A stretch of 64,000 nucleotides of DNA from Vicinamibacteria bacterium (lineage in GTDB: Bacteria > Acidobacteriota > Vicinamibacteria > Marinacidobacterales > Marinacidobacteraceae): contig OY729431.1 of assembly GCA_963422395.1 (NCBI GenBank), positions 1,952,001 to 2,016,000 on the forward strand. Reading direction: 5' to 3'. Shown here one piece after another: positions 26,910-42,961 of this stretch; positions within the stretch are counted from its first letter, which is position 1, and each line of letters opens with the position of its first letter. The notes under the pieces were generated by a model. That model worked only from the letters and a program-made list of their open reading frames with translations. It did not search any database and had not been told where the DNA came from. The position numbers and the translations under genes were made by a program.

Positions 26910-27087
26910 GCTAGGCAGCGAGTTCGGATTCGCGCTGCGGTCGGCCGCCGCTTTCTGGTAGCATTTGCGGTCCTTTCCAGCTTGAATCCGGCCATGGTCG
27001 AAAACATGACCGTCAACACAACCGACAAGGAATCTCCGCTCCCGTTGCTTGGGGACCGCTGATTTGTCCGACGCTGAGCTTCCCCGC

Positions 27088-29283
27088 GTGAACGGCAGGG
27101 AAGCGAACGTAGCGGAACCGCGAGCGGCGCTTGGAAGTGCGAACGGAGCGCCGGAAAACGGAAGGGACCGCGGCGAAGGCGCCGAATCGGAAGGCGCTCC
27201 GGCGCTTTCCGTCTCCGAGCTGAGGGATGCCTACCGGGTGATGCTCGCTGCCCGGGAGGTGGACTTCCGGGAGATCGCGCTGAAGCGCCAGAACAAGGCC
27301 TTCTTCCAGATCAGCTCCATCGGGCACGAGGCGGTGACCGCCGCCGCCGGAACGCTGCTTCGACCCGAGACCGACTGGATCTACAGCTACTACCGGGATC
27401 GCGCGCTCGCCATCCGGCTGGGAATCACCCCGACGGAACAGCTGGCGGCGTCCTGGGGTGCGGCGGCCGATCCGTCCTCGGGAGGACGGCAGATGCCCTC
27501 CCACTTCTGCAAGCCAGGCACCGGACTCACCGTGCATTCGAGCTGTGTGGGCACCCAATACCTGCATGCGGTCGGAACCGCCTTCGCCGAGCGGTACCTG
27601 AGCCGCTGCCGGATTCCCGAGCTGCCGGCAGCGCCGGACGGCGACGGAGTCGTGCTGGTGTGCGGCGGCGAGGGCTCCACGAGCGAGGGGGAATTCTGGG
27701 AAGCCCTGAACACCGCTTCGCTCCGGCGCCTCCCGGTGCTGTTCCTCATCGAGGACAACGGCTATGCGATCTCCGTCCCGGTCGAGCATCAGACCGCGGG
27801 CGGGGCGATCGCTCCGCTGGTGCGCGGCTTCCCCGGCCTCGAGGTGCTGGAATGCGACGGGTGCGACTACGAGGAGTCCTGGCGGACCCTGTCGGCAGCC
27901 TTCGAACATGTCAGGTCCGGCGCCGGGCCGGCGCTCGTGCAGGCCCGCGTGGTCCGCTACGAGTCCCATTCCCTCTCCGACGACGACCGGGCTTACAAAT
28001 CCGCCGCCGAGCTCGAAGCGGAGCGGGCGCGGGACCCGCTCCTGAAGCTTCGCGACCGTCTCACCGCCTCGGGAGCCGCCACCGGGGAAGAGCTCGACGA
28101 GCTCGGGAAGCGCACGCAGACGGAGGTCGCCGCGGCCGCGGCCGCGGCCCTGGCCCTGCCCTGGGCAGAGCCGGACACCATCTTCGACCACCTCTACAGC
28201 CCGGATGTGGACCCCTGTTCCCGGGACTTCGAGACCGAACCACAGTTCGAAGAGGGTTCGAAGCCGGGCACGATGGTGGACCTCATCAACGCCGCGCTGC
28301 GTTCCGAGCTGGCCCGCGACCCCCGCGTGGTGGTCTTCGGGCAGGATGTGGCAGACGCGAGCCGCGAAGAGATACTGCGCGAGGTCGAAGGCAAGGGCGG
28401 CGTCTTCAAGGTGAGTCACGGGCTGCAGCGCGAGTTCGGGTCGGAGCGGGTGTTCAACACCCCGCTCGCCGAAGCCACGATCGTGGGGATGGGCACCGGA
28501 ATGGCGACGCGCGGGCTCCGCCCCGTCGCCGAGATCCAGTTCCTCGACTACATCTGGCCGGCGTACATGCAGATCCGCAGCGAGCTCGCCAGCTTGCGCT
28601 GGCGCGCCAACGGGGCCTTCGACGCGCCGCTGGTGATCCGCGTCCCGGTGGGCGGTTACCTGACCGGCGGCGGGATGTACCACAGCCAATCGGCAGAGGT
28701 CCTCTTCACCCACCTGCCCGGATTGCGGGTGGTGATGCCGTCCACCGCGCTCGACGCCGCCGGCCTTCTCCGGACCGCCATCCGTTCCGACGATCCGGTC
28801 ATGTTCCTCGAACACAAACACCTCTACCGGCAGGCCTACAACAAGAGTCCCGACCCGGGGCCCGACTTCATGATTCCGTTCGGCAAGGCGCGCCTGGTGC
28901 GTCCGGGCGAGGATCTCACCCTGATCACTTACGGAGCACTCGTCCACCGGTCGGAACTCGCCGCCCGAAAGGCGGCTGCCGACGGCATTTCGGTGGAGAT
29001 CCTGGACCTGCGCTCTCTCGCCCCCTACGACTGGAACGCGATCCGGGAGAGCGTGCGGCGGACGAACCGGGCGCTCGTCGCCTACGAGGACACCCGCAGC
29101 TTCGGCTACGGAGCTGAGATCGCCGCCCGAATCGCCGAGGAACTCTTCGAGGATCTCGACGCACCGGTTCGCCGGGTCGCCGCCCGCGACACTTGGGTCG
29201 CGTACAACCCGGGCCTCGAACGGGCCATCCTGCCGCAGCCGGAAGATCTCGAAAGCGCGATCCGCCAGCTCGCCGATTACTGA
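27088..29283 (+). CDS. 2-oxoacid dehydrogenase E1, fused alpha/beta subunits (branched-chain-like)
   Basis: [28 protein letters not shown] (TPP motif), [23 protein letters not shown]; start uncertain. Confidence 0.92.
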
Positions 29284-29391
29284 AGATCAGCCGCCGCCGG
29301 CGACGACCTGGGTCGGTTCCTCCTGACCGCCGATGGCGAAATCCTTCCCCCGCGAAACCCCGGCGCGGTCTGCTCTTTCCACGGGCTGCTG

Positions 29392-30612
29392 ATGTCGGTC
29401 CAGGTCTTTCAGAGCCCTGCTGCGCAAATCGAGCCGTTTCCGGCGAGCCCGGACACGAACCCCCTGAGCGTCCTCTCGGAAGACGAGCGGCTTCACTTCG
29501 CCGCAGTGCAGGAAGTGGCCGAGGGGGTGGTGGCCCCGCAGTCACGCGGCATGGAGGAGGAGGGCTGCATCACAGCGGAACTCGTGCGCTCTCTCGTGGA
29601 CTACGGGTTCTTCGGGGTCGTGGTGCCGGAACAGCTCGGCGGGAGCGGCCTCGGCTTTTTCGAAGTGGTGCTGACGGTCGAGGGACTCGCGCGCGCCGAT
29701 GCGGCCGTGGCGTTGCTCGTGGATGTCCACTGCACGATGGTGGCGGGAGCGATCAACCGCTTCGGCCGCAGAAGCCAGCGGCAGCGACTGCTGCCGGCGC
29801 TCGCCGCCGGCCGGATCGGCTCGTTCGCGCTGTCGGAGGCGCACGCGGGAAGCGACGCATTCGCGCTTCGGACCACGGCCCGGCCGGCGAAGGGCGGATT
29901 CGTACTGAACGGCTCGAAGGCGTGGGTCTCGGGGGGCCGGGAAGCCGGCCTCTTCTTGGTCTTCGCCCGACTCGCCGCCGAAGAAGAGCAGCCGGCAGCG
30001 AACCCCGGCGGCATCACGGCGTTTCTGGTGGACCGCGAGACTCCGGGCCTGACCGTCGGACCCGGCGAGAAAAAGGTCGGCCTCCGCGCATCGAGCACTA
30101 CTCCGCTCTTCCTCGAGAATGTCTTCGTCCCTGCCGAACAGGTGCTCGGCGGCATCGGAGAAGGGCGGCAGCTCGCGCTTTCCCTGCTGAACGAGGGGCG
30201 GATCGGGATCGCGGCCCAGCTGGTCGGCGTCGGGCAGGCAGCGCTCGAACTCGCCGCTTCCTACGCCAGACAGCGCGAAGCGTTCGGCAGGCCGATCGGG
30301 AAGAACCAGGCGGTCGCGTTCGCGCTCGCCGAGGCCGCCACCCAGGTCGAAACCGCCCGGCTGCTGACCTGGAACGCGGCGCGCCTCGCCGATCAGGGAA
30401 ACGAAACCCGCTACGCCGCAGCGATGGCCAAGCTGACCGCACAGCGGATGGCGGAATCGGTGACCTCGCTCGCCATCGAAATCCACGGCGGCGTCGGGTA
30501 CACGACGGACTGTCTCGCCGAGAAGCTCTGGCGAGACGCGAAGGCGGGGACCATCTACGAGGGCACCGAGAACATGCAGCTGACGACCATCGCCCACGGC
30601 CTCGACCTGTAG
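29392..30612 (+). CDS. Acyl-CoA dehydrogenase (short/branched-chain type)
   Basis: [46 protein letters not shown]. Confidence 0.93.
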
Positions 30613-33803: not shown

Positions 33804-34499
33804 TCATCCCCTTTCCTGCTGCGTTTCGTGCTGCGGTGGCAAATCTTCGAGGCGTTGCATCCAGCCATCGAAGTGGCGGCACTCGGCCCGCATGCGCGGA
33901 ATGCCTATGCGTCCGGAGATGTCGGCGCCGTGTAGCACCTTGCGATATCTCGGGGTCAGGTGCTTCAAGCGAGCCGAGGGGTGCGTGGTGCTGCCCTCGT
34001 TGACATGCTCCGGACTCTTGGCCGACTGTCTTGCCGCCGCGAGCTGTCCGGCGAACTTGCGCCAGGAAGGTTCGGCTTCCTCGAATCTCGAAATCTCCGA
34101 GAACAGCAGAGATTCGAACTCGCAGGGTTGGATGTGAGGAAAAAATCGGTCGGAGCGGCACTCGGCCTTTTGAACGACTTCCGCATGGAAAACGCTTTCG
34201 ATACTCGCCGCACGTTCGATCGGATCGGAATTCGTTGCCTTCGAGTGCCCGGGGAAGTTTCGAGGAAGCCCGTACAGATCGAAGAAAGTCGTCACATAAG
34301 TATCCTTTCGTTCCCGCAAGGTATTGCGAAGAAAGTGAAATACCCGTTGGTGGTTGAGCGCCCCGCCCTTTGCAACGCGAGAGGTGGCGATGAGTCGGGG
34401 CTGGACGAACACCTGCCGATCTGCCAGGAAGGGGCCGAGCACCCTATTCGTGAAGGTCTCCTCGGTCTGGCCTTCGCAGACGATCACGATTTCCTTCAT
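33804..34499 (-). CDS. DUF4276 family protein (second copy)
   Basis: [37 protein letters not shown]...HPSARL. Confidence 0.8.
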
Positions 34500-34509
34500 C
34501 CTTCTGGCC

Positions 34510-35601
34510 TCACTCTTCTGGCCTGCCGCCGAGTATGTTCATCTTCCACAGATCACCCAGCGAATACTCGGCCAGCCAGTCGGTCAGACGATCGGGGTCC
34601 AGCCGCTCGAAAACCGACTCTCCGTTTTTCCGGTTGACGACCAGGACCTCTTCCGGCGTCAGTTGGCTGACGAGCTCCGCCGACTGGGTCGAGACGATGA
34701 CCTGTCGCGCGTCGCTGGCATGGCGGAGCATTTCGGCGAGCAGGGTGAGAGCGTAGGGGTGCAGGCCCAGCTCCGGCTCGTCGATGAGGATCAAGTCGGG
34801 CTGCAGCTGCGTCGGCTGGAGAAGCAGGGTCGCCAGGCAGAGGAACCGGAGCGTCCCGTCCGAAAGCTGGCGAGGCCCGAACACGGTGTCCGAGTCGTTT
34901 GCATGGTGCCATTCGAGATCCAGTCGTTCCCCCACCCTCTCGCGATAGAGGAAGTCGCCGAAGAACGGCGCGGTCAGCCGGATCGCCTCGACGATCTGGC
35001 GAAAATGGTCGCCGTGATGCTCGCGCAACCGACGCAGGAACGGCGCGAGATTGCCCGCGTCGGGCTTGAGCCGGAGGTCGTCGCGCAGGGCCTGCTTCCT
35101 GCGCACTCGCGCCTCGGCGCTGGTGTCGTGGAAGTGGTACACCCGCCAGCCGGCGATGGCCTTGCGCACATAGGGTGCAAAAGTGTCCTTCCCCTCCTCG
35201 TCCATATCCCTGAGATTCGACTCGTCGTGGCCGCTGCCCAGGGAGTGGGAAAAATCTCCATGGTCGCCGAAGAACTGCGTCTCCTCCTTCTCGAACACGA
35301 GGCGGTCCCCGGTCGGCACGAGGGAAAAGCGGTAGGCATTCCTGTCGAATACGAACTCGGCATCGATACGGTCGGTCCGCTTCCTGCCGCCGAACAACAA
35401 TGCATCCGGTCCGTCCTGTTCAGCGGCGAAGAGTTGCAGGCGCCGGTCTGCCGCGCAGGACAACATGCGGAACAGGTCGATGAAGTTGGTCTTGCCGGCG
35501 CCGTTGGGGCCGATCAGGACATTCAGCGACCCCGGTTCGAAGTCTTCCAGCGCGCGGATCGACTTGAAGCCGCGAACGGCAAGGCGGTCTAGCCGAGGCA
35601 T
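34510..35601 (-). CDS. AAA_21-type ABC ATPase (second copy)
   Basis: GFKSI, GPNGAGKTN, YHFHDTS, LSDGT, DEPELGLHP, STQS. Confidence 0.88.
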   Translation of the reverse strand: MPRLDRLAVRGFKSIRALEDFEPGSLNVLIGPNGAGKTNFIDLFRMLSCAADRRLQLFAAEQDGPDALLFGGRKRTDRIDAEFVFDRNAYRFSLVPTGDRLVFEKEETQFFGDHGDFSHSLGSGHDESNLRDMDEEGKDTFAPYVRKAIAGWRVYHFHDTSAEARVRRKQALRDDLRLKPDAGNLAPFLRRLREHHGDHFRQIVEAIRLTAPFFGDFLYRERVGERLDLEWHHANDSDTVFGPRQLSDGTLRFLCLATLLLQPTQLQPDLILIDEPELGLHPYALTLLAEMLRHASDARQVIVSTQSAELVSQLTPEEVLVVNRKNGESVFERLDPDRLTDWLAEYSLGDLWKMNILGGRPEE

Positions 35602-35627
35602 GGAGCTCGCAAGACAGCGTAGGCGGT

Positions 35628-36770
35628 TCAGTCGCCTCGCGACTCCGGTTCGTCGTCGCAAATGACTTCGATCAGGCGCGGATTCAGCAGCCTCCACCGC
35701 TGCTTCATGCGCTCCAGGTCGCCCTTCAGCACGACCAGCGCCCGGTCGTGGTGGGCCTTAACTGCTCTTCGATAGTCCCGTTGCTCCAGAACCGCCGCAA
35801 CCGATTGTCGTCGTCCATCGATGACTGCCGTCATATGGATCGTTCCTTCGTCGTCCGCCTCCCCGCGCTTCAGGAGGCGAACGAAGCCGTGGAGACTCAC
35901 ATCCGGCCGCGGCGCGCGATCGCGGAAAGAGCGCGCCGCTTCGCGCAGCAGAGCTGCATCCGAACTGCCGAACCGAACGATGTGTCCCGGCACTTTCCCT
36001 GTCACCGGTCGTGTTCGAGCCCACGAAACGCCGATGTCCAGCGTCGGAAACGGTTCGATGAGCCGGACCAATGCCTCACACAGATTGGCGCTCACCCCGT
36101 CGTCCACTGCCGCCTCGAAGGAGCCTGTCTCACCGGCAGCCGCGCGTTCTGCCGCCCCACGGACCGCGGTGAGCGCCTCGACCAGCCGCCTCGTCATTCG
36201 GCGTTCGATCGGGGCATTCTGATCGTCCGGATCGGGAAAAAGCGTCGGGATCGGCGGCGGAACGACCGGCGTCAGCAGTGTCACCACGAAGCTCCCCTGC
36301 TCGGTCTGTCCCAAGCGTACCTTTCGCAACAGATCCGCCGCCTCCCGGTTCGCGCCCGCGCGATAGACCGGCCGCGGGTCGTGGAGTGAACACGCCGCCG
36401 AAAGCAGCAGGTCGTGGGCACCGCCGATGAGGTCCAAGCCGTCGTTCAACATCACGCTGCCGTCGTCGCTCTCTGTCGCTCGGACGCGGACGATGTCGCG
36501 GTCCACAGTCACGAGCGATCGATAGACGGTCAACTCGTCCTGACCGGCTACTTTCGCGAAAGTTTCGATCAACGCCGCCACGACGCTCGCGTAGTCGCCG
36601 AGGCGCTCCGTGCGCGGGACGAGGATCTCCGGCCGCTCCTCTCCTGCATAGACATCCGAGTGCACCCGGTACGGCTCCTGTCGGCTCCATCCAGCGGCAC
36701 GAGCGTACGCGGACAACGCCGCCGGCGAAACGGCCAGCAGCGCATCCAGGTCGTGAATGCTCACTCGCAT
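35628..36770 (-). CDS. Hypothetical protein (380 aa), coupled to a DUF4365-like gene
   Basis: Clean ORF with TGATG overlap; LGQTEQGSFVVTL and GVSANLCEAL segments; beta-rich C-terminus. Confidence 0.75.
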   Translation of the reverse strand: MRVSIHDLDALLAVSPAALSAYARAAGWSRQEPYRVHSDVYAGEERPEILVPRTERLGDYASVVAALIETFAKVAGQDELTVYRSLVTVDRDIVRVRATESDDGSVMLNDGLDLIGGAHDLLLSAACSLHDPRPVYRAGANREAADLLRKVRLGQTEQGSFVVTLLTPVVPPPIPTLFPDPDDQNAPIERRMTRRLVEALTAVRGAAERAAAGETGSFEAAVDDGVSANLCEALVRLIEPFPTLDIGVSWARTRPVTGKVPGHIVRFGSSDAALLREAARSFRDRAPRPDVSLHGFVRLLKRGEADDEGTIHMTAVIDGRRQSVAAVLEQRDYRRAVKAHHDRALVVLKGDLERMKQRWRLLNPRLIEVICDDEPESRGD

Positions 36771-37081
36771 CAGATTTCCCCCTTCCGGGACTTCTGCATG
36801 AGTTTTCGTAACGCCTCGATGTCGAAAATATTCTGTTCCGGAAGGCGAACCGTGACGGTCTTCCGTCCGATGACTTCGTCGTGCCCCTGCTGTAGGTTCA
36901 GCCAGTAGGCAAGGCGCCGCAGAACGAGTTCTTCGGCGGTCACAGTCGAAACGACATCCACCGCGACTCGCCTTCCTTCTGGCAACTCGAGGACCACGAG
37001 TGCGCGTGTCGCCACGGCCCTGGCGTAGACGAGGGACAATCCCTCCTTCTGGTCCGGATCGGTGAGCAGCGTGTCCGTCAT
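36770..37081 (-). pseudogene. DUF4365-like (PD-(D/E)XK) protein with internal deletion
   Basis: QKEGLSLVYARAVA joined directly to LVVLELP...LRRLAYWLNL...TVTVRLPEQN; the central nuclease segment is missing. Confidence 0.6.
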
Positions 37082-37164
37082 GAGATAGCTCCGATCAGAT
37101 TCCTAGCGTCTCACACCCGCAGCTCGTCGGACTCCAGCTTCGGCAGCAGCGCATCGTGCCAGGC
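37078..37164 (-). pseudogene. Relic hsdS 3' end
   Basis: AWHDALLPKLESDELRV*DARNLIGAIS* versus ALRDTLLPKLISGELRVHEAEK at 38983-39069; its last stop overlaps the DUF4365 ATG. Confidence 0.85.
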
Positions 37165-37181: not shown

Positions 37182-38921
37182 TCACAGTTCGAATGGCTGG
37201 TATTCCACCAACGTGGACCGACCGATGAGGTCGACGATGGTTACCGAAAATTCGGCACCGAACGCGTCGGTGAGCCTCATCGCTTTGCCCAGTCGAAAAG
37301 AGACCGGCTGCTGCCGTCCCTCGTCGATGGCGATATTGTCTGCGTACAGATAAGTCCGGTCCGAAGTATCCCGTTTAGGATTCAACCGCCCGCGCAGGCC
37401 GGGAATATGTCCGGCGCCCTGGGAGAAGATAGCCGCACCTCCCTTCGGGAGAGGACGGAGCTCCATGAGAAGCCCTCCTCCGTCCGGTCTCCACCCCCGT
37501 TCGATCCCCGCAGAATATCCAGGCGCCGCGGCGTAAACGGTCATCGGTAGATGCGCCGTGTACAGACCGAGAGCGGCTTCGCCAGCTTCATCGGTCGTCG
37601 CCCGCTGCCAGGTATCGTTCGGGAAGAGTGCCAGAACTTCCACTTCTGGTAGAGGCACTCCCTCCGAGTGCACCGTGACCGTCGCAGTGGAAGGAATCCT
37701 TTGGAGTTTTGCCGCCGGTATGCTCAAGATCAAGCTGGATTCATCCAACATCTCATATTTCGGCAGGATACCGGCAGTTTTTCTGGTCTTCTCCAGGATG
37801 ATCGAGACGCCGTCGCCCCGTCGTTCCATCAGGTAACGGCGGTGGGTCGATCCGGGGACTCCGCCAACGGGAATTCGTCCGAACACGGAAGCGATCACCT
37901 CGTTGCGTGTCGCCTGGCTGGCACCCATGCTTTCTATGGTCATGCCGTTGGGAAGCTGGCCGGGCGATTCGATCTCGAGGCGGTCATCGAACATCGACAA
38001 CCGGATACGACGCGATTCCATGGAGTAGTCGCGGTGGACGACTGCGTTGACCACCGCTTCGAAAACCGCGGCGATGCTGTACTGCGGTACATCCTCCCGT
38101 TCTGGCAGCTTGCGTGCCGCAACGCGCATGTTTCGAACGACGAACTTCACCGCGTCGGCGATCTGGACTGGAAGCGGTCCGACGATTTCCTGGTCGTCCA
38201 ACTGTTCGGAAGTACGGGTTCTTCCCCGGTAACACTTCGCGAAGATGGCGGCTTGCGGGATCCATTCCTGCGGCGATCGGGCACAGAGCAATACGCCGGC
38301 TCTCGTGGCTCGATCCACACCGGTTTCCTCATGCGCCAAAAGGCGAAGATTCTTCAACCCCCGGCGAGGGTCCGCCGCGCCCGCCACGCTGAGGAGCGGC
38401 TCCCACAGACTCTCGTCGAGCGTCTCGAAGCCCGTCTCCGGAACGACTTGCCTGTCGTACCACAGGAAACGGCTCTGCGCTCGGTTCTGTGCCAGCCTCA
38501 GGCGCTCGTCGCCGTCGAGGCGGCGCTTGGTCGCACCTACCCGGAGGAAAGCGCGCCCGGCCCGCTCGTGAACAGTGCCGCCTCGCGGGATTTCGACGAG
38601 CAGGAAAGCCTCGCCGTCGAGTTCTCGATGGTGGACCTCGATTCGCAGAGAAGGATGGATCGTATCGGTAGCGATCTCCACCAGCAGTCGGTCGAGTGCT
38701 GTCAGCTGTTCCCGAGACATCCCTCGAATCCGCCCATCGTCGGATACCCCGCACAGGAGGAAGCCGCCGCTTCCGTTGGCGAAAGCTCCCATCTCATCGG
38801 CGAGATCGCCTCTTGCGGGGCTGGTCGGGATATCGCCCCTGAATTCGATCTGCTCGAATTCCCAGCGGCTGTCCTCACCCAACCGCATCTGCCGTCGGAT
38901 GACCTCGTCGCGGACCGTCAT
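37182..38921 (-). CDS. Schlafen/AlbA_2 plus HATPase_c_4 (RecG-C-like) protein with an extra C-terminal beta domain
   Basis: GEDSRWEFE, AFANGSGG.LLCGVSDDG, EAVVNAVVHRDY, DRLEIESPG, RNEVIA, MERRGDG; C-terminal VEVLALFP...TTDEAGEA...AAAPGY. Confidence 0.8.
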   Translation of the reverse strand: MTVRDEVIRRQMRLGEDSRWEFEQIEFRGDIPTSPARGDLADEMGAFANGSGGFLLCGVSDDGRIRGMSREQLTALDRLLVEIATDTIHPSLRIEVHHRELDGEAFLLVEIPRGGTVHERAGRAFLRVGATKRRLDGDERLRLAQNRAQSRFLWYDRQVVPETGFETLDESLWEPLLSVAGAADPRRGLKNLRLLAHEETGVDRATRAGVLLCARSPQEWIPQAAIFAKCYRGRTRTSEQLDDQEIVGPLPVQIADAVKFVVRNMRVAARKLPEREDVPQYSIAAVFEAVVNAVVHRDYSMESRRIRLSMFDDRLEIESPGQLPNGMTIESMGASQATRNEVIASVFGRIPVGGVPGSTHRRYLMERRGDGVSIILEKTRKTAGILPKYEMLDESSLILSIPAAKLQRIPSTATVTVHSEGVPLPEVEVLALFPNDTWQRATTDEAGEAALGLYTAHLPMTVYAAAPGYSAGIERGWRPDGGGLLMELRPLPKGGAAIFSQGAGHIPGLRGRLNPKRDTSDRTYLYADNIAIDEGRQQPVSFRLGKAMRLTDAFGAEFSVTIVDLIGRSTLVEYQPFEL

Positions 38922-38982: not shown

Positions 38983-40865
38983 TCACGCAAAGGTATCGAC
39001 GACCTTCTCGGCCTCATGCACCCGCAGCTCGCCAGAAATCAGCTTCGGCAGCAGGGTGTCGCGCAGGGCAGAGAGAGTGTGACTTGTCAATTCGTTGGTA
39101 ACTTGACGCTCCAACAATTTTCCGAACAGACCGGATATCTGAACGAGTAATCGATCAGAAGGAACGACACACAAGGCATCCGTCAGGTGATGTCGTCTGA
39201 TATGTCCCATCGTTGTCGCTTTGTCTTTGGCAATTCGTTGAAATTCTTGAAAATGTGACAAAATACTATGCAAATAAAACCACTTGGAATATTTATTCGA
39301 TGTCACCTTGAATAGATGTTGATTCAAAGCTGCTCTCCCACCGCACCATATTCGAACCAAAAGACTGCCTGACCAAGAAAACACGATATCGCCGTTCTCG
39401 ATAATGCATTTTGGATTTATGTTCGCTCTTGCCCATTCTCCGCTATTTGTTTCACCAGCTCGTAGTTGAGATATCTTGACTACGGGCAAGCGTTCCTCAT
39501 GCTGCGACGGAGAAAATTTCTGAAGGGAAAGTCCGTTCTGAAAGAAGGCGATCGAATCAAGCGCCCTCACCGTCCAGCCTTCCGGTATCTCGCCCAACTC
39601 GGAGTCCACCAGCGGTCGGGGAAGAGGGCGGCGAGGTGCGGCGGCAGACCGGTATCGCGGCCCTGCATCTTCGCCCGCACCGGGTCGAAGGCGACGAACC
39701 AGGACTGGAACAGCGCCCGGGCCATCGCCTCCAGCGTCTCGTTCATCCGCCGGTTCCGCTCGATCTTGTCGTCGAGCGTCCCGAGGACGTGCGCAATGGC
39801 GCAGCGTTCCGACTGCGGAGGCCATGGCAGGGAGAGCGATTCCAAGTCCTTCCTGGTGGCGTTTCCGAAGACTGAACCGCTATCCTCCAGTACGTTCCAG
39901 GACGACTCCATGTGTCGAAGGCAGAACTCGAGATATCGAGTGTCGGATCGAACGAATGGCTTGATGATCGCTAATCCACGACCAGCAGCGCATTCCAGGT
40001 CGGCAATGTTCACTCGACCAATTGGCGCACGTACGCTGAAAAGAATCTCCCCAGGTCGTGCTACACGAGAAGGTGCCGAGCAGAACACTCTAGGCGACGG
40101 GTGGCGATAGTTGAAGTCCTTGACTCCCTGAAAGAACGGCAGCCCATTGCCGTCGCCGTTGTAAGTCGAACCTGGTGGGGACTGTCCCATGACCAGTTCG
40201 GCGATATCCCGTAGACGTTTCCGCCTGCGATCCGTCGTCGAACTTCGTTCAACTTTCGTCCCTAGCACCACGTAGTCGCGCTCGATCTCCCGCTGAAACC
40301 GCTTCGGCAGGCGCACCCAGTCGCGGGCTTCGACGAGGAAGGGGATGTTCGACTCGCGCACGGCCTCCTCGAAATCGCCTACCTGACCGATCGGGATTTC
40401 TTCCAGGCCCGGACCGCGCAGCACGAGGTCGAGATCGCTGCCGTCGTGGCTTCGCCCGTTCACCCGGCTGCCGTAGGCCCAGACTGCGACACCCGGCAGG
40501 TGCTCCCGCAGCAGCGTTTCCAGTACCCGTCGGTGGTTGGCGGCGAGATGGAGCCGATCAGCCGGCAACTGTACCCGCTGCTCCGTCACGATACGCCTGA
40601 ATCGTTCGCCGATTCGCCTGACGTCCACGATGTCCACAGCGAAGGGAAGATCCGAATCCTCGAACGCCGCTTCCATCGCAAACAGGTGCTGTTCCGCGAT
40701 GCTGGTATCTCCCTCCAGAGCGAGATCGAGGTCGGACGAATCTTTCGTCATCCAGTTGGCGCGGCTCCCGAAGACCCAGACCCTGACGCCGCCCGGCAGA
40801 TGCCGATGCAACACGTCCTGGACGATGCGCAGGTGATCGGCGCGGATGTCAATCGGCGGCGTCAA
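38983..40865 (-). CDS. hsdS: Fusion of two MNT nucleotidyltransferase domains to a type I specificity subunit HsdS; 1-bp frameshift near 39613 between TRD1 and TRD2
   Basis: FGSRANWMTKDSSDLDL and YGSRVNGRSHDGSDLDL are in frame with MGQSP..TRD1..LDDKIERNRRMNETLEAMARALFQSWFV; second frame LVDSELGEIPEGW..TRD2..LRDTLLPKLISGELRV; TTG start inferred. Confidence 0.85.
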
Positions 40866-41289
40866 GGGATTCGTTCCTCTGATGCAGCTGATCCCGGAGA
40901 TATCTGGCCTCACCGACGAAGTCCGGGACGATCTCGAAGACCACCCGCGCCTTGTCTCCGTCGTAGGTGTGGCTGGTTGTGCTCCGGTGCTTACGGTACT
41001 CCTTCCAGATGGACAACTCGGACCGCACCAATCCCCGCCGGAAGGCTTCACGCATGATGGCGCTGAAGCTCATTTCATCGAACTGGGCCGGATTCTCGGA
41101 GACTTGTTCCAGATGGCGCTTGACCATCTTGAATGACAATTCGTAGGTGAACTCGAAGGCTTGGATTGCGGCAGCTCTGAGGTGCAGCTTGAGAGCGGGG
41201 TAGCGTGACGCGATGTCCGAGCCGTGGTACTCCAGAGCTCCCTCCAACTGGGCGAGCGCATCATCGAGCGGCGTCAGGTCGAGTCTCAT
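40849..41289 (-). CDS. HEPN-domain RNase toxin (HI0074 / nucleotidyltransferase substrate-binding family)
   Basis: [16 protein letters not shown] and RSTTSHTY (R-X4-H-X-Y); ATGA overlap with the hsdM stop. Confidence 0.88.
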
Positions 41290-42961
41290 GACCCGTGCCT
41301 CCGCGACACGAACCCCAGCGTCTTCAGATTGTCGGCGATGGCCGCATCGAGCCGCGCGCCTTCCGCCTGCTGCTCGCGCAGTTGCGCGACCAGCCGCTTC
41401 ATCTTGTCTTCGAAGGGCTCGCCGTCCTCCTCCCGGGGTGCGGCGCCCACATAGCGGCCCGGAGTGAGCACATGGTGGTGCTTGCGGACTTCTTCCAGCG
41501 GCGCGCTCCGGCAGAAGCCGGGCAGATCCGCGTATTCGCCCGCACCCTCCCCGCCCCGCCAGGCGTGGTAGGTGCCGGCGATGCGGGCGATGTCCTCGTC
41601 GGTCAGCTCCCGGTGCGTGCGGTCCACCATCCGGCCCAGCTTGCGGGCGTCGAGGAACAGGATTCCGCTCCGCCGATCGCGTAACTTTCCGCCTTCCCGG
41701 CCCCGCGTCAGGAACCACAGGCAGGCCGGGATCTGGGTCGAGTAGAAGAGCTGGCCCGGCAGGGCCACCATGCAGTCCACCAGGCCCGCCTCGATCAGGT
41801 TCTTCCGGATCGCCCCCTCGCCCGACTGGGCCGACGACATCGAGCCGTTGGCGAGCACGAAGCCCGCCGCGCCCCCCGGCGCCAGATGGTGGAGCAGGTG
41901 CTGCACCCAGGCGAAGTTGGCGTTGCCCTTCGGCGGGACTCCGTACCGCCAGCGCCGGTCGTCGGCGAGCCGCTCCCCGCCCCAATCGGACACATTGAAC
42001 GGCGGATTAGCGAGGATGAAATCGGCCTTCAGGTCCGGGTGGCGGTCGTCGTGGAAGCTATCGCCGTGGGCGATACCGCCGCTCTCGATGCCTCGGATGG
42101 CCAGATTCATCTTGGCCAGCCGCCAGGTCGTGTAGTTGGACTCCTGGCCCCAGATCGAGAGGTCGCCCTTCGCCCTCCCGCCGTTGCCGTTGCCGGTAGC
42201 GTGTGCCCGGATGAAGTCCATCGACTGCACGAACATCCCCGCCGAGCCGCAGCAGGGGTCGTACACCCGGCCCCGGTACGGCGCCAGCATCTCGACCAGC
42301 AGCCGGACCACCGAGCGCGGAGTGTAGAACTCACCGCCCTTCTTCCCCTCTGCGCTCGCGAACTGCGAAAGGAAGTATTCGTACACCCGGCCCAGTACAT
42401 CCCGGGAACGGGCCTCCGCGTCGCCCACCCGGAGATCGCCGATCCGGTCGATGAGCTGGCCGAGCCGCTGCTTGTCGAGCGCCGGCCGGGCGTAGTCCTT
42501 CGGCAGGACATCCCCGAGCACCGGGTTGTCGCGCTCGACCGCCGCCATCGCGTCGTCGACGACCTGCCCGATGGTGGGCTGCCGCGCCTGCGCCTGCAGG
42601 CGGTTCCAGCGAGCTTCGGGCGGCACCCAGAAGATGTTCTCGGCGGTGTACTCGTCGCGGTCCTCGGCGGCCTCCGCACCCAGTTCGGCGAGCACTGCCT
42701 CCTGGCGCTCTTCGAAAGCGTCCGAGATGTACTTGAGGAAGATCAGCCCGAGGACGACATGCTTGTACTCGGCGGCGTCCATCGAGCCGCGCAGCGCATC
42801 GGCCATCGCCCACAGCTCGGTCTCGTGTCCGGTCGCGGCGCCCTGGACGGTCGCCGCACTCCTAGCGGCCGTCGTGGCGGCGCTGCTGCCTTTGCCGTTC
42901 GACCCCGACCCTGGCGCCCTACCGCCGGATCGCTGTTTCCTCAGCCTTCCTCGGGCCATGA
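41286..42961 (-). CDS. hsdM: Type I restriction-modification methyltransferase subunit
   Basis: [51 protein letters not shown]. Confidence 0.96.

Follow-up and report, generated by a model that had tools for sequence, protein, structure and literature searches.

Pairs of HEPN and MNT proteins have been described as toxin-antitoxin (TA) modules that work by AMPylation (PMC7641770; PMC11586414; PMC13000451), and the linkage of HEPN genes to restriction-modification (RM) systems, the analogy with PrrC and the proposal of a second line of defence are likewise published (PMC3710099). Here we report the analysis of a type I RM locus found in a stretch of 64,000 nucleotides of a Vicinamibacteria bacterium genome (contig OY729431.1, positions 1,952,001 to 2,016,000), hereafter the window. 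A HEPN gene lies there between hsdM and hsdS, and two MNT domains in tandem are continuous with the specificity subunit HsdS. Each component is known on its own, the HEPN gene in an RM operon as well as the AMPylating MNT antitoxin. The covalent joining of such an antitoxin to HsdS was not found in print: no description of an MNT::HsdS fusion turned up in full-text literature searches, figures and most supplements aside (a neighbourhood of this kind may appear in Figure 5 and Additional file 1 of PMC3710099).

The nearest solved relatives by sequence are HI0073 and HI0074 of Haemophilus influenzae (structures 1no5 and 1jog); HI0073 is also the nearest MNT by fold, and HI0074 belongs to the same Pfam and NCBIfam family as the window HEPN. 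They are separate small proteins, whereas the window has two MNT copies running on into HsdS and a pair embedded in an hsd operon. The type VII HEPN-MNT pair of Legionella pneumophila (8xdj, 8xeh, 8xeo) is also detectable by sequence (E about 4e-8, for the HEPN protein, and 4.8e-5). The window shares with it the RX4HXY loop with an acceptor Tyr, a Q..E metal site and a short MNT devoid of the long C-terminal helix. The Legionella pair differs in that its two genes stand by themselves, unfused and away from any RM system. HepT of Shewanella oneidensis belongs to another HEPN family (DUF86). In that HepT/MntA system (5yep, 7bxo) the MNT is an adenylyltransferase that neutralises the HEPN RNase (PMC7641770), and its fold is similar, but the window MNT does not reach the equivalog cut-off of MntA. 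PrrC, encoded in the EcoprrI type I RM locus, is a HEPN-superfamily RNase whose gene is found inside an hsd operon, and it is the reference case of RNase silencing by an RM complex (PMC3710099). It has its own ABC ATPase regulatory domain, which the window HEPN lacks, and has neither an MNT antitoxin nor an HsdS fusion. FhepTA is a fused MNT-HEPN protein (PMC13000451) and resembles the window in that a HEPN/MNT component is fused to a further partner. In FhepTA the antitoxin is joined to its own toxin, whereas in the window it is joined to an RM subunit and the toxin is separate. RM-associated HEPN domains are reported to be fused to nucleases, helicases and ATPases, and the MNT gene of such pairs to lie almost always 5′ of the HEPN gene; these statements of PMC3710099 leave the MNT::HsdS case uncovered.

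The stop codon of hsdM (ORF end 41286) and the ATG of the HEPN gene (41289-41287) overlap as ATGA. The 146-amino-acid HEPN protein matches PF08780 as its sole Pfam family (101.8 bits, cut-off 31.8) and the NCBIfam model TIGR01987 “HI0074 family” (79.8 bits, cut-off 55.8); its nearest solved relative is HI0074 (1jog, E 4e-24). Its translation contains an intact RX4HXY motif (RSTTSHTY) with an acceptor-type Tyr. Both the overlap and the motif reported in the initial annotation agree with coordinates and translation. Among 36 homologues of 54-86% identity, E46, R102, H107 and Y109 are invariant and Q43 is kept in at least 90%. These five residues are the counterparts of the Legionella HEPN sites: there the MNT poly-AMPylates Y105 within RX4HXY, the RNase needs a metal held by Q44 and E47, and the R and H of the motif are non-catalytic (PMC11586414). 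The PF08780 model gave a single match in the 2.9-Mb genome, the gene of this locus, and no second HEPN of the family was found with it. The Pfam scan identified no ABC ATPase domain, the PrrC-type sensor, on the HEPN protein, which sets it apart from PrrC.

The HEPN gene overlaps by 17 nucleotides an ORF that ends at a stop codon at 39567. TTG 40865 is its likely initiation codon because a GAGG sequence lies ~10 nucleotides upstream and homologues begin with M-T-P-P at that position. One stop-free frame reads through MNT, MNT, a short linker, the first target recognition domain (TRD1) of HsdS and the central conserved region; “fused” is used here in the sense of one such frame. Pfam recognises two Polbeta/NTP_transf_2 stretches followed by Methylase_S at residues 221-384 of the product, and the HsdS part scores 211.7 bits with the PADLOC model Specificity_I. 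The family assignments made beforehand for HEPN, MNT and HsdS were thus borne out. The same applies to the claim of two complete MNT domains, each with G-S-X10-D-X-D, running in frame into TRD1: both carry the motif followed by an acidic third residue (G,S,D,D,D in MNT1 and G,S,D,D,E in MNT2). MNT1 is closest among solved chains to HI0073 (1no5, E 2.5e-12), and MNT2 shares 64-82% identity (73-85% in the two protein searches described below) with the MNT found in single MNT::HsdS fusions. The modelled MNT fold superposes on HI0073 with a TM-score of 0.84-0.87 (target length) and a root-mean-square deviation of 1.5-1.7 A, on the Legionella MNT with a TM-score of 0.84, and on S. oneidensis MntA with a TM-score of about 0.56-0.59 (target length). 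This homology to HI0073/HI0074 and to the Legionella pair upholds the earlier tie to AMPylation-type HEPN/MNT systems. The cognate HEPN and MNT genes adjoin and are matched in type (see below), as in type VII systems.

AlphaFold2, given the 432-amino-acid product of the window and an alignment of 45 double-MNT proteins, folds the domains well individually (mean predicted local distance difference test score, pLDDT, 83.6) with a predicted TM-score (pTM) of 0.47; linker residues 204-212 have a pLDDT below 50. The model pictures an antitoxin tethered to HsdS like beads on a string rather than packed against it. We considered that the doubled MNT might form an intramolecular pseudo-dimer. The lack of confident inter-domain packing (pTM 0.47) makes this arrangement less likely, as does the analysis of HEPN and MNT types, which favours two captures (see below).

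The hsdS frame of the window breaks after ...FPDR, at ~39610-39612, and the second target recognition domain (TRD2) continues in another frame from ...LVDSELGEIP to 38983. Full-length homologues run unbroken from the central conserved region into TRD2. The stretch was compared with contigs from four public sequencing runs, X1 and X2 of one study, X4 of a second and X6 of a third. All three runs that cover the site carry one extra base, located behind 39612 in X1 (depth 43/43) and X2 (24.8/24.8) and behind 39610 in X4 (7.51/7.51). Either insertion yields a 627-amino-acid MNT-MNT-HsdS ORF ending at 38983, with both TRDs in one protein. The break is thus an assembly error or a strain variant and not a feature of the locus, given the 627-amino-acid ORF that the additional base restores in X1, X2 and X4. 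A programmed frameshift or a functional half-HsdS is discarded: the extra base is present at full depth in three runs and the homologues read through. X1 is otherwise identical to the window across 39758-41400. The X1, X2 and X4 contigs span the junction between MNT2 and TRD1 free of gaps, with no stop or frameshift between the MNTs and TRD1 such as the initial annotation had named as refuting the fusion, and their single-base differences keep both the HEPN and the fusion ORF open. The fusion to HsdS proposed in the initial annotation therefore stands in frame through TRD1, while the one-base break before TRD2 had been missed.

In X6 the flanks match, but different sequence of about the same length stands in place of TRD1 as well as TRD2 (window positions 38983-39560 and 39802-40302), which indicates TRD swapping between strains. 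The G+C content of TRD2 is 0.42-0.48, against 0.60-0.70 nearby. In all four runs the segment 39656-39823 has a summed contig depth of 334-2327 as compared to about 9-45 on each side; the HsdS central conserved region is nearly identical in many members of those communities.

The fusion is found in many other genomes. A protein search with the double-MNT part as query, its targets limited to 240-765 amino acids, found 1873 length-matched proteins at E <= 0.001, and PF01420 was present on 110 of the 120 matches listed (the protein of the window itself is one of the 110). Representatives at 50% identity, scanned exhaustively with a profile, gave 3441 matches at the same threshold (E <= 0.001). 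Each half of the query, MNT1 or MNT2, has its own near relatives, located N-terminally in proteins of ~500-560 amino acids. When 265 database proteins from both searches were sorted with purpose-built hidden Markov models, 202 combined MNT and HsdS, 45 of them as MNT-MNT-HsdS; a further 8 are MNT-MNT proteins alone and 52 single MNTs. The doubled MNT had been put forward as an unrecognised architecture; with 45 such proteins in the database it is not unique to the window.

A genome scan with one genome per species yielded 589 confirmed relatives, of which the best 80 were kept, all metagenome-assembled according to their titles. MNT and HsdS share one stop-to-stop frame in 47 of these 80 loci, distributed over 11 phyla (48 of 81 with the window), but the 80 are the top matches to a fused query and the proportions do not give prevalence. 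The other loci are six with adjacent but separate genes, 23 with an MNT and no HsdS and four with no MNT. The usual layout among fused loci is hsdM, HEPN, MNT::hsdS. This recurrence in other genomes rules out a chance origin of the fusion. A full-length HsdM match is available for 40 of the fused loci, and 39 of these proteins share 67-87% identity with the HsdM of the window, which suggests that one mobile hsd lineage carries the cassette across 11 phyla. The layout is also present on plasmid pZMOB01 of Zymomonas mobilis ATCC 10988 (locus L088, NC_017180.1), which encodes hsdM, a gene annotated “HI0074 family”, a 527-amino-acid HsdS with an MNT-like N-terminus and hsdR; the fusion is annotated there merely as “restriction endonuclease subunit S”. 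A plasmid of Acetobacter ascendens LMG 1591 (L090, NZ_CP015170.1) carries the unfused form, with MNT and hsdS in the same frame 12 nucleotides apart, which by its sequence is probably the precursor form. HEPN+MNT+HsdS triple fusions exist and are rare (P0182, P0391). Long fused HEPN forms number four as compared to 820 stand-alone HEPNs, in a search that is weak for long proteins.

The origin of the doubling was approached by sorting HEPN and MNT sequences independently into types (single linkage at 45% identity for HEPN, H0 and following; 50% identity for MNT, N0 and following). The two classifications agree in 70 of 73 adjacent HEPN-MNT pairs (48 H0-N0, 15 H1-N1, 4 H2-N2 and 3 H3-N3). The window has the order H2, then N2::N0::HsdS, and the sole other doubled loci of the set (L014 and L079) have H3, then N3::N0::HsdS. 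The HEPN of each of these three loci pairs by type with the first MNT; the second MNT is an N0 domain that has no H0 partner. N0 is the commonest MNT type fused to HsdS, and at least five types (N0-N4) occur in such fusions. Among 53 database doubles, 22 are N3-N0, 19 N2-N0, 6 N2-N1 and 6 of other composition; 43 end in N0. The doubling is thus best explained by capture of a second cassette, because HEPN fits the first MNT and the second MNT is an N0 domain devoid of its own toxin. The initial annotation had named a second capture event as one of two options, and the type pairing together with the 53 doubles argues for it. Tandem cassettes of the form H0 N0 H1 N1::HsdS are found in L021, L023 and L056; loss of the inner toxin from a locus of this type would result in a double MNT.

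The catalytic core (G,S,D,D) is intact in 53/53 first MNTs, in 39/53 second MNTs and in 147/155 single fused MNTs, giving Fisher p values of about 5e-5 and 7e-5 for core loss in the second MNT, which are overstated as the rows are related. The second MNT is thus under relaxed constraint, as expected for a leftover. Within the H0-N0 set, distances among HEPN proteins follow those among MNTs (r 0.27; 8 of 2000 permutations reach this value), whereas HsdM distances are uncorrelated with those of H0 or N0 (r 0.10 and 0.13; 437 and 348 of 2000 permutations as high). HEPN and MNT therefore travel together from one hsd operon to another. A tree of 59 N0 domains shows 17 switches between the fused and the free state (bootstrap 16-19), at least four of them forced by well-supported branches, and the state is barely clustered. 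Judging from this tree, fusion and fission, or recombination, are frequent.

Our preferred reading, to which we give a probability of roughly 0.6, is that the locus holds an AMPylation-type (type VII) HEPN/MNT cassette of the HI0074/HI0073 lineage between hsdM and hsdS, with the antitoxin forming the N-terminal part of HsdS. MNT1 (N2) would adenylylate Tyr109 in the RX4HXY loop of HEPN and silence the RNase, a step proposed because of the homology to HI0073/HI0074 and to the Legionella HEPN-MNT and because of the matching residues. MNT2 (N0) is probably the remnant of an older N0::HsdS fusion whose H0 toxin was displaced or deleted when the H2-N2 cassette came. The supply of antitoxin would be coupled to HsdS synthesis and stability, and a flexible tether would keep each antitoxin on the methylase or restriction complex. 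An end to hsdS expression or a loss of the fusion protein, as upon loss of the locus or host shut-off, would release the RNase. If this is true, the hsd operon would be stabilised, and an abortive back-up could be added.

Several observations weigh against this reading or narrow it. HEPN is upstream of MNT in all 73 adjacent pairs and in the window, the reverse of the usual order in such pairs. The Pfam nucleotidyltransferase models pass their thresholds, but the NCBIfam MntA equivalog NF047752 scores 54.8 bits, under its cut-off of 60. Internal starts within the fused frame might yield separate products, and the loci were selected by their match to a fused query. The MNT2 of the window, like 39/53 of the doubles, keeps all catalytic residues, so that “relic” may understate its role. 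The HEPN partners in L014 and L079 lack the R or H of the motif and the strict motif is absent in 12 of 49 H0 genes; some cassettes may be non-toxic. Finally, obligatory addiction may be questioned by the deletion of the plasmid gene hsdS (zmop32x028) from Z. mobilis ZM4, which left growth normal (PMC8432527). The same source assigns that HsdS two domain superfamilies and places one unnamed gene between hsdS and hsdM (026); the case is a lead only, which would count if that HsdS carries an MNT.

The covalent joining of antitoxin and HsdS is a Rosetta-stone hint that both systems act jointly, and two proposals go further along this line. In one, the RM complex would be the physical keeper of the HEPN RNase, which phage anti-restriction proteins, proteolysis or loss of the complex would unleash, and an intact MNT2 could in addition protect against incoming H0 toxins borne on other hsd cassettes; we regard it as rather doubtful. 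The other, which we judge unlikely, is a guard in the sense of PrrC, where the HsdS-borne antitoxin holds HEPN inactive on the complex and a phage anti-restriction protein releases it specifically. It has a precedent in PrrC, held by EcoprrI and freed by Stp; an analogous scheme has been put forward for the HEPN genes of RM operons (PMC3710099). The fusion of at least five MNT types (N0-N4) to HsdS, the rare triple fusions and the joining of an N0-type MNT to the OLD-like ATPase/TOPRIM protein P0174 are also consistent with it. The covalent nature of AMPylation stands in the way: disturbance of the complex alone would not free the modified toxin, which would need new synthesis or removal of AMP. 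The HEPN protein carries no sensor domain comparable to the ABC ATPase of PrrC. Furthermore, the same cassette types are free-standing outside RM loci in 23 of 81 cases, unfused forms account for 6 of 81 and the state flips frequently on the N0 tree; the low cost of making the fusion, and not selection for a guard role, may for these reasons account for it.

Cheap fusion leads to a neutral explanation, in which a selfish hitch-hiker lodged between hsdM and hsdS and merged with its in-frame neighbour by stop-codon loss. Neither activity would depend on the other, and the doubling would be debris of decay. The Acetobacter plasmid, where 12 nucleotides separate MNT from hsdS in the same frame, would be one such step away, and the 17 barely clustered changes on the N0 tree (bootstrap 16-19), the uncoupling of cassette history from hsdM and the relaxed constraint on the second MNT are what it predicts; the HsdM identity of 67-87% in 39/40 fused loci from 11 phyla would reflect the spread of one mobile hsd lineage. 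Yet RM-embedded loci are fused in 48 cases and unfused in 6, albeit in a biased sample, and strict conservation is seen in the core of the first MNT and in the HEPN motifs; we judge this account distinctly unlikely. A last alternative denies that HEPN and MNT form a TA pair. They would be a two-subunit nucleotidyltransferase brought to DNA by HsdS and modifying, for instance, HsdR, HsdM or incoming DNA, in line with the original view of HI0073/HI0074 as nucleotide- and substrate-binding subunits (title of 1no5; PMC2701414). Related pairs have since been demonstrated to be a toxin and an AMPylating antitoxin (PMC11586414; PMC7641770), and conservation extends to the acceptor Tyr and to the residues of the RNase; we consider this alternative highly improbable. 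Under the preferred reading of an HsdS-borne AMPylating antitoxin, a suicide RNase may be tied to the restriction system through the fusion. The idea of such an RM-coupled RNase is now directly testable, the fusion being widespread and present on a plasmid of a cultured, tractable bacterium. Proteins of 520-690 amino acids annotated as “restriction endonuclease subunit S” can hide an antitoxin, and deletion of such an MNT-bearing hsdS to ease transformation could expose the toxin. The typed cassettes also show swapping of TA modules inside a mobile hsd scaffold.

The features of the locus are listed in Table 1; hsdM, HEPN, MNT-MNT-HsdS and hsdR are all encoded on the minus strand. The product of hsdM matches PF02384 (346.5 bits) and PF12161 (97.7 bits), and its nearest solved chain is 3khk (E 1.9e-148). 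Both hsdM and hsdR are present at the locus, as expected for a type I RM system. They are accompanied by ~5 kb of embedded defence genes between hsdS and the downstream hsdR; nesting of defence genes within hsd operons has been published (10.1101/2024.01.29.577857).

Table 1. Features of the type I RM locus and its HEPN/MNT cassette (positions within the window).
Feature	Position	Strand	Remarks
hsdM, type I methylase subunit	41286..42959	-	ORF open to 42986; first ATG 42959
HEPN toxin gene, HI0074 family, 146 aa	40849..41289	-	PF08780, TIGR01987
MNT domain 1, type N2, N-terminal in the fusion protein; cognate partner of the HEPN gene	40563..40865	-	Polbeta and NTP_transf_2 stretches
MNT domain 2, type N0, HsdS-proximal	40245..40562	-	resembles the MNT of single MNT::HsdS fusions
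Short linker with TRD1 of HsdS and the central conserved region, continuing the MNT frame; premature stop at 39567 in the window	39567..40244	-	Methylase_S at residues 221-384
One-base difference between window and public contigs; source of the hsdS frameshift in the window	39610..39612	.	extra base in X1, X2, X4
HsdS TRD2 and C-terminal conserved region; other frame in the window	38983..39609	-	translation; Methylase_S 22.4 bits
hsdR, 1070 aa	30656..33868	-	HSDR_N, SWI2_SNF2, T1RH-like_C domains

Directly after hsdS, 37182-38921 (minus strand, as for the other genes of this segment) encodes a 579-amino-acid protein with Schlafen/AlbA_2 and HATPase_c_4 domains; its ~180 C-terminal residues have no family match, and it gives weak PADLOC matches to pAgo-associated proteins. 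Just past this gene, the terminal peptide of a stop-to-stop frame at 37111-37160 (-) is similar to the HsdS C-terminal conserved region and may be the scar of an older hsdS end after insertion. The 380-amino-acid protein encoded at 35628-37081 (-) gives a full-length match to the PADLOC candidate PDC-M02B (401 bits). It is preceded by a 103-amino-acid ORF that looks truncated, only the C-terminal part of PDC-M02A/DUF4365 being matched. An AAA_21 ATPase (34510-35697, -) and a DUF4276 protein (33804-34499, -) correspond to PADLOC HEC-01A (445 bits) and HEC-01B (239 bits). HEC-01, described as embedded in other defence loci, sits here between hsdS and hsdR. Downstream of hsdR, 27013-30597 (-) holds three ORFs of 644, 206 and 351 amino acids that match neither Pfam nor PADLOC models.

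Some relatives of the fusion have other architectures. P0174 is an OLD-like ATPase/TOPRIM protein with its N0-type MNT at the C-terminus, and P0055 is an MNT::HsdS protein with an inserted DUF559 endonuclease-like domain; P0068, P0077, P0086 and P0118 show the same Pfam list. Three tandem HEPN genes (H5, H5, H1) precede a single MNT::HsdS in L003:576-2813. In L045:5533-6849 a HEPN domain runs into an HsdS with one TRD, the tail of the MNT alone remaining, which looks like a decayed version of the fused locus.

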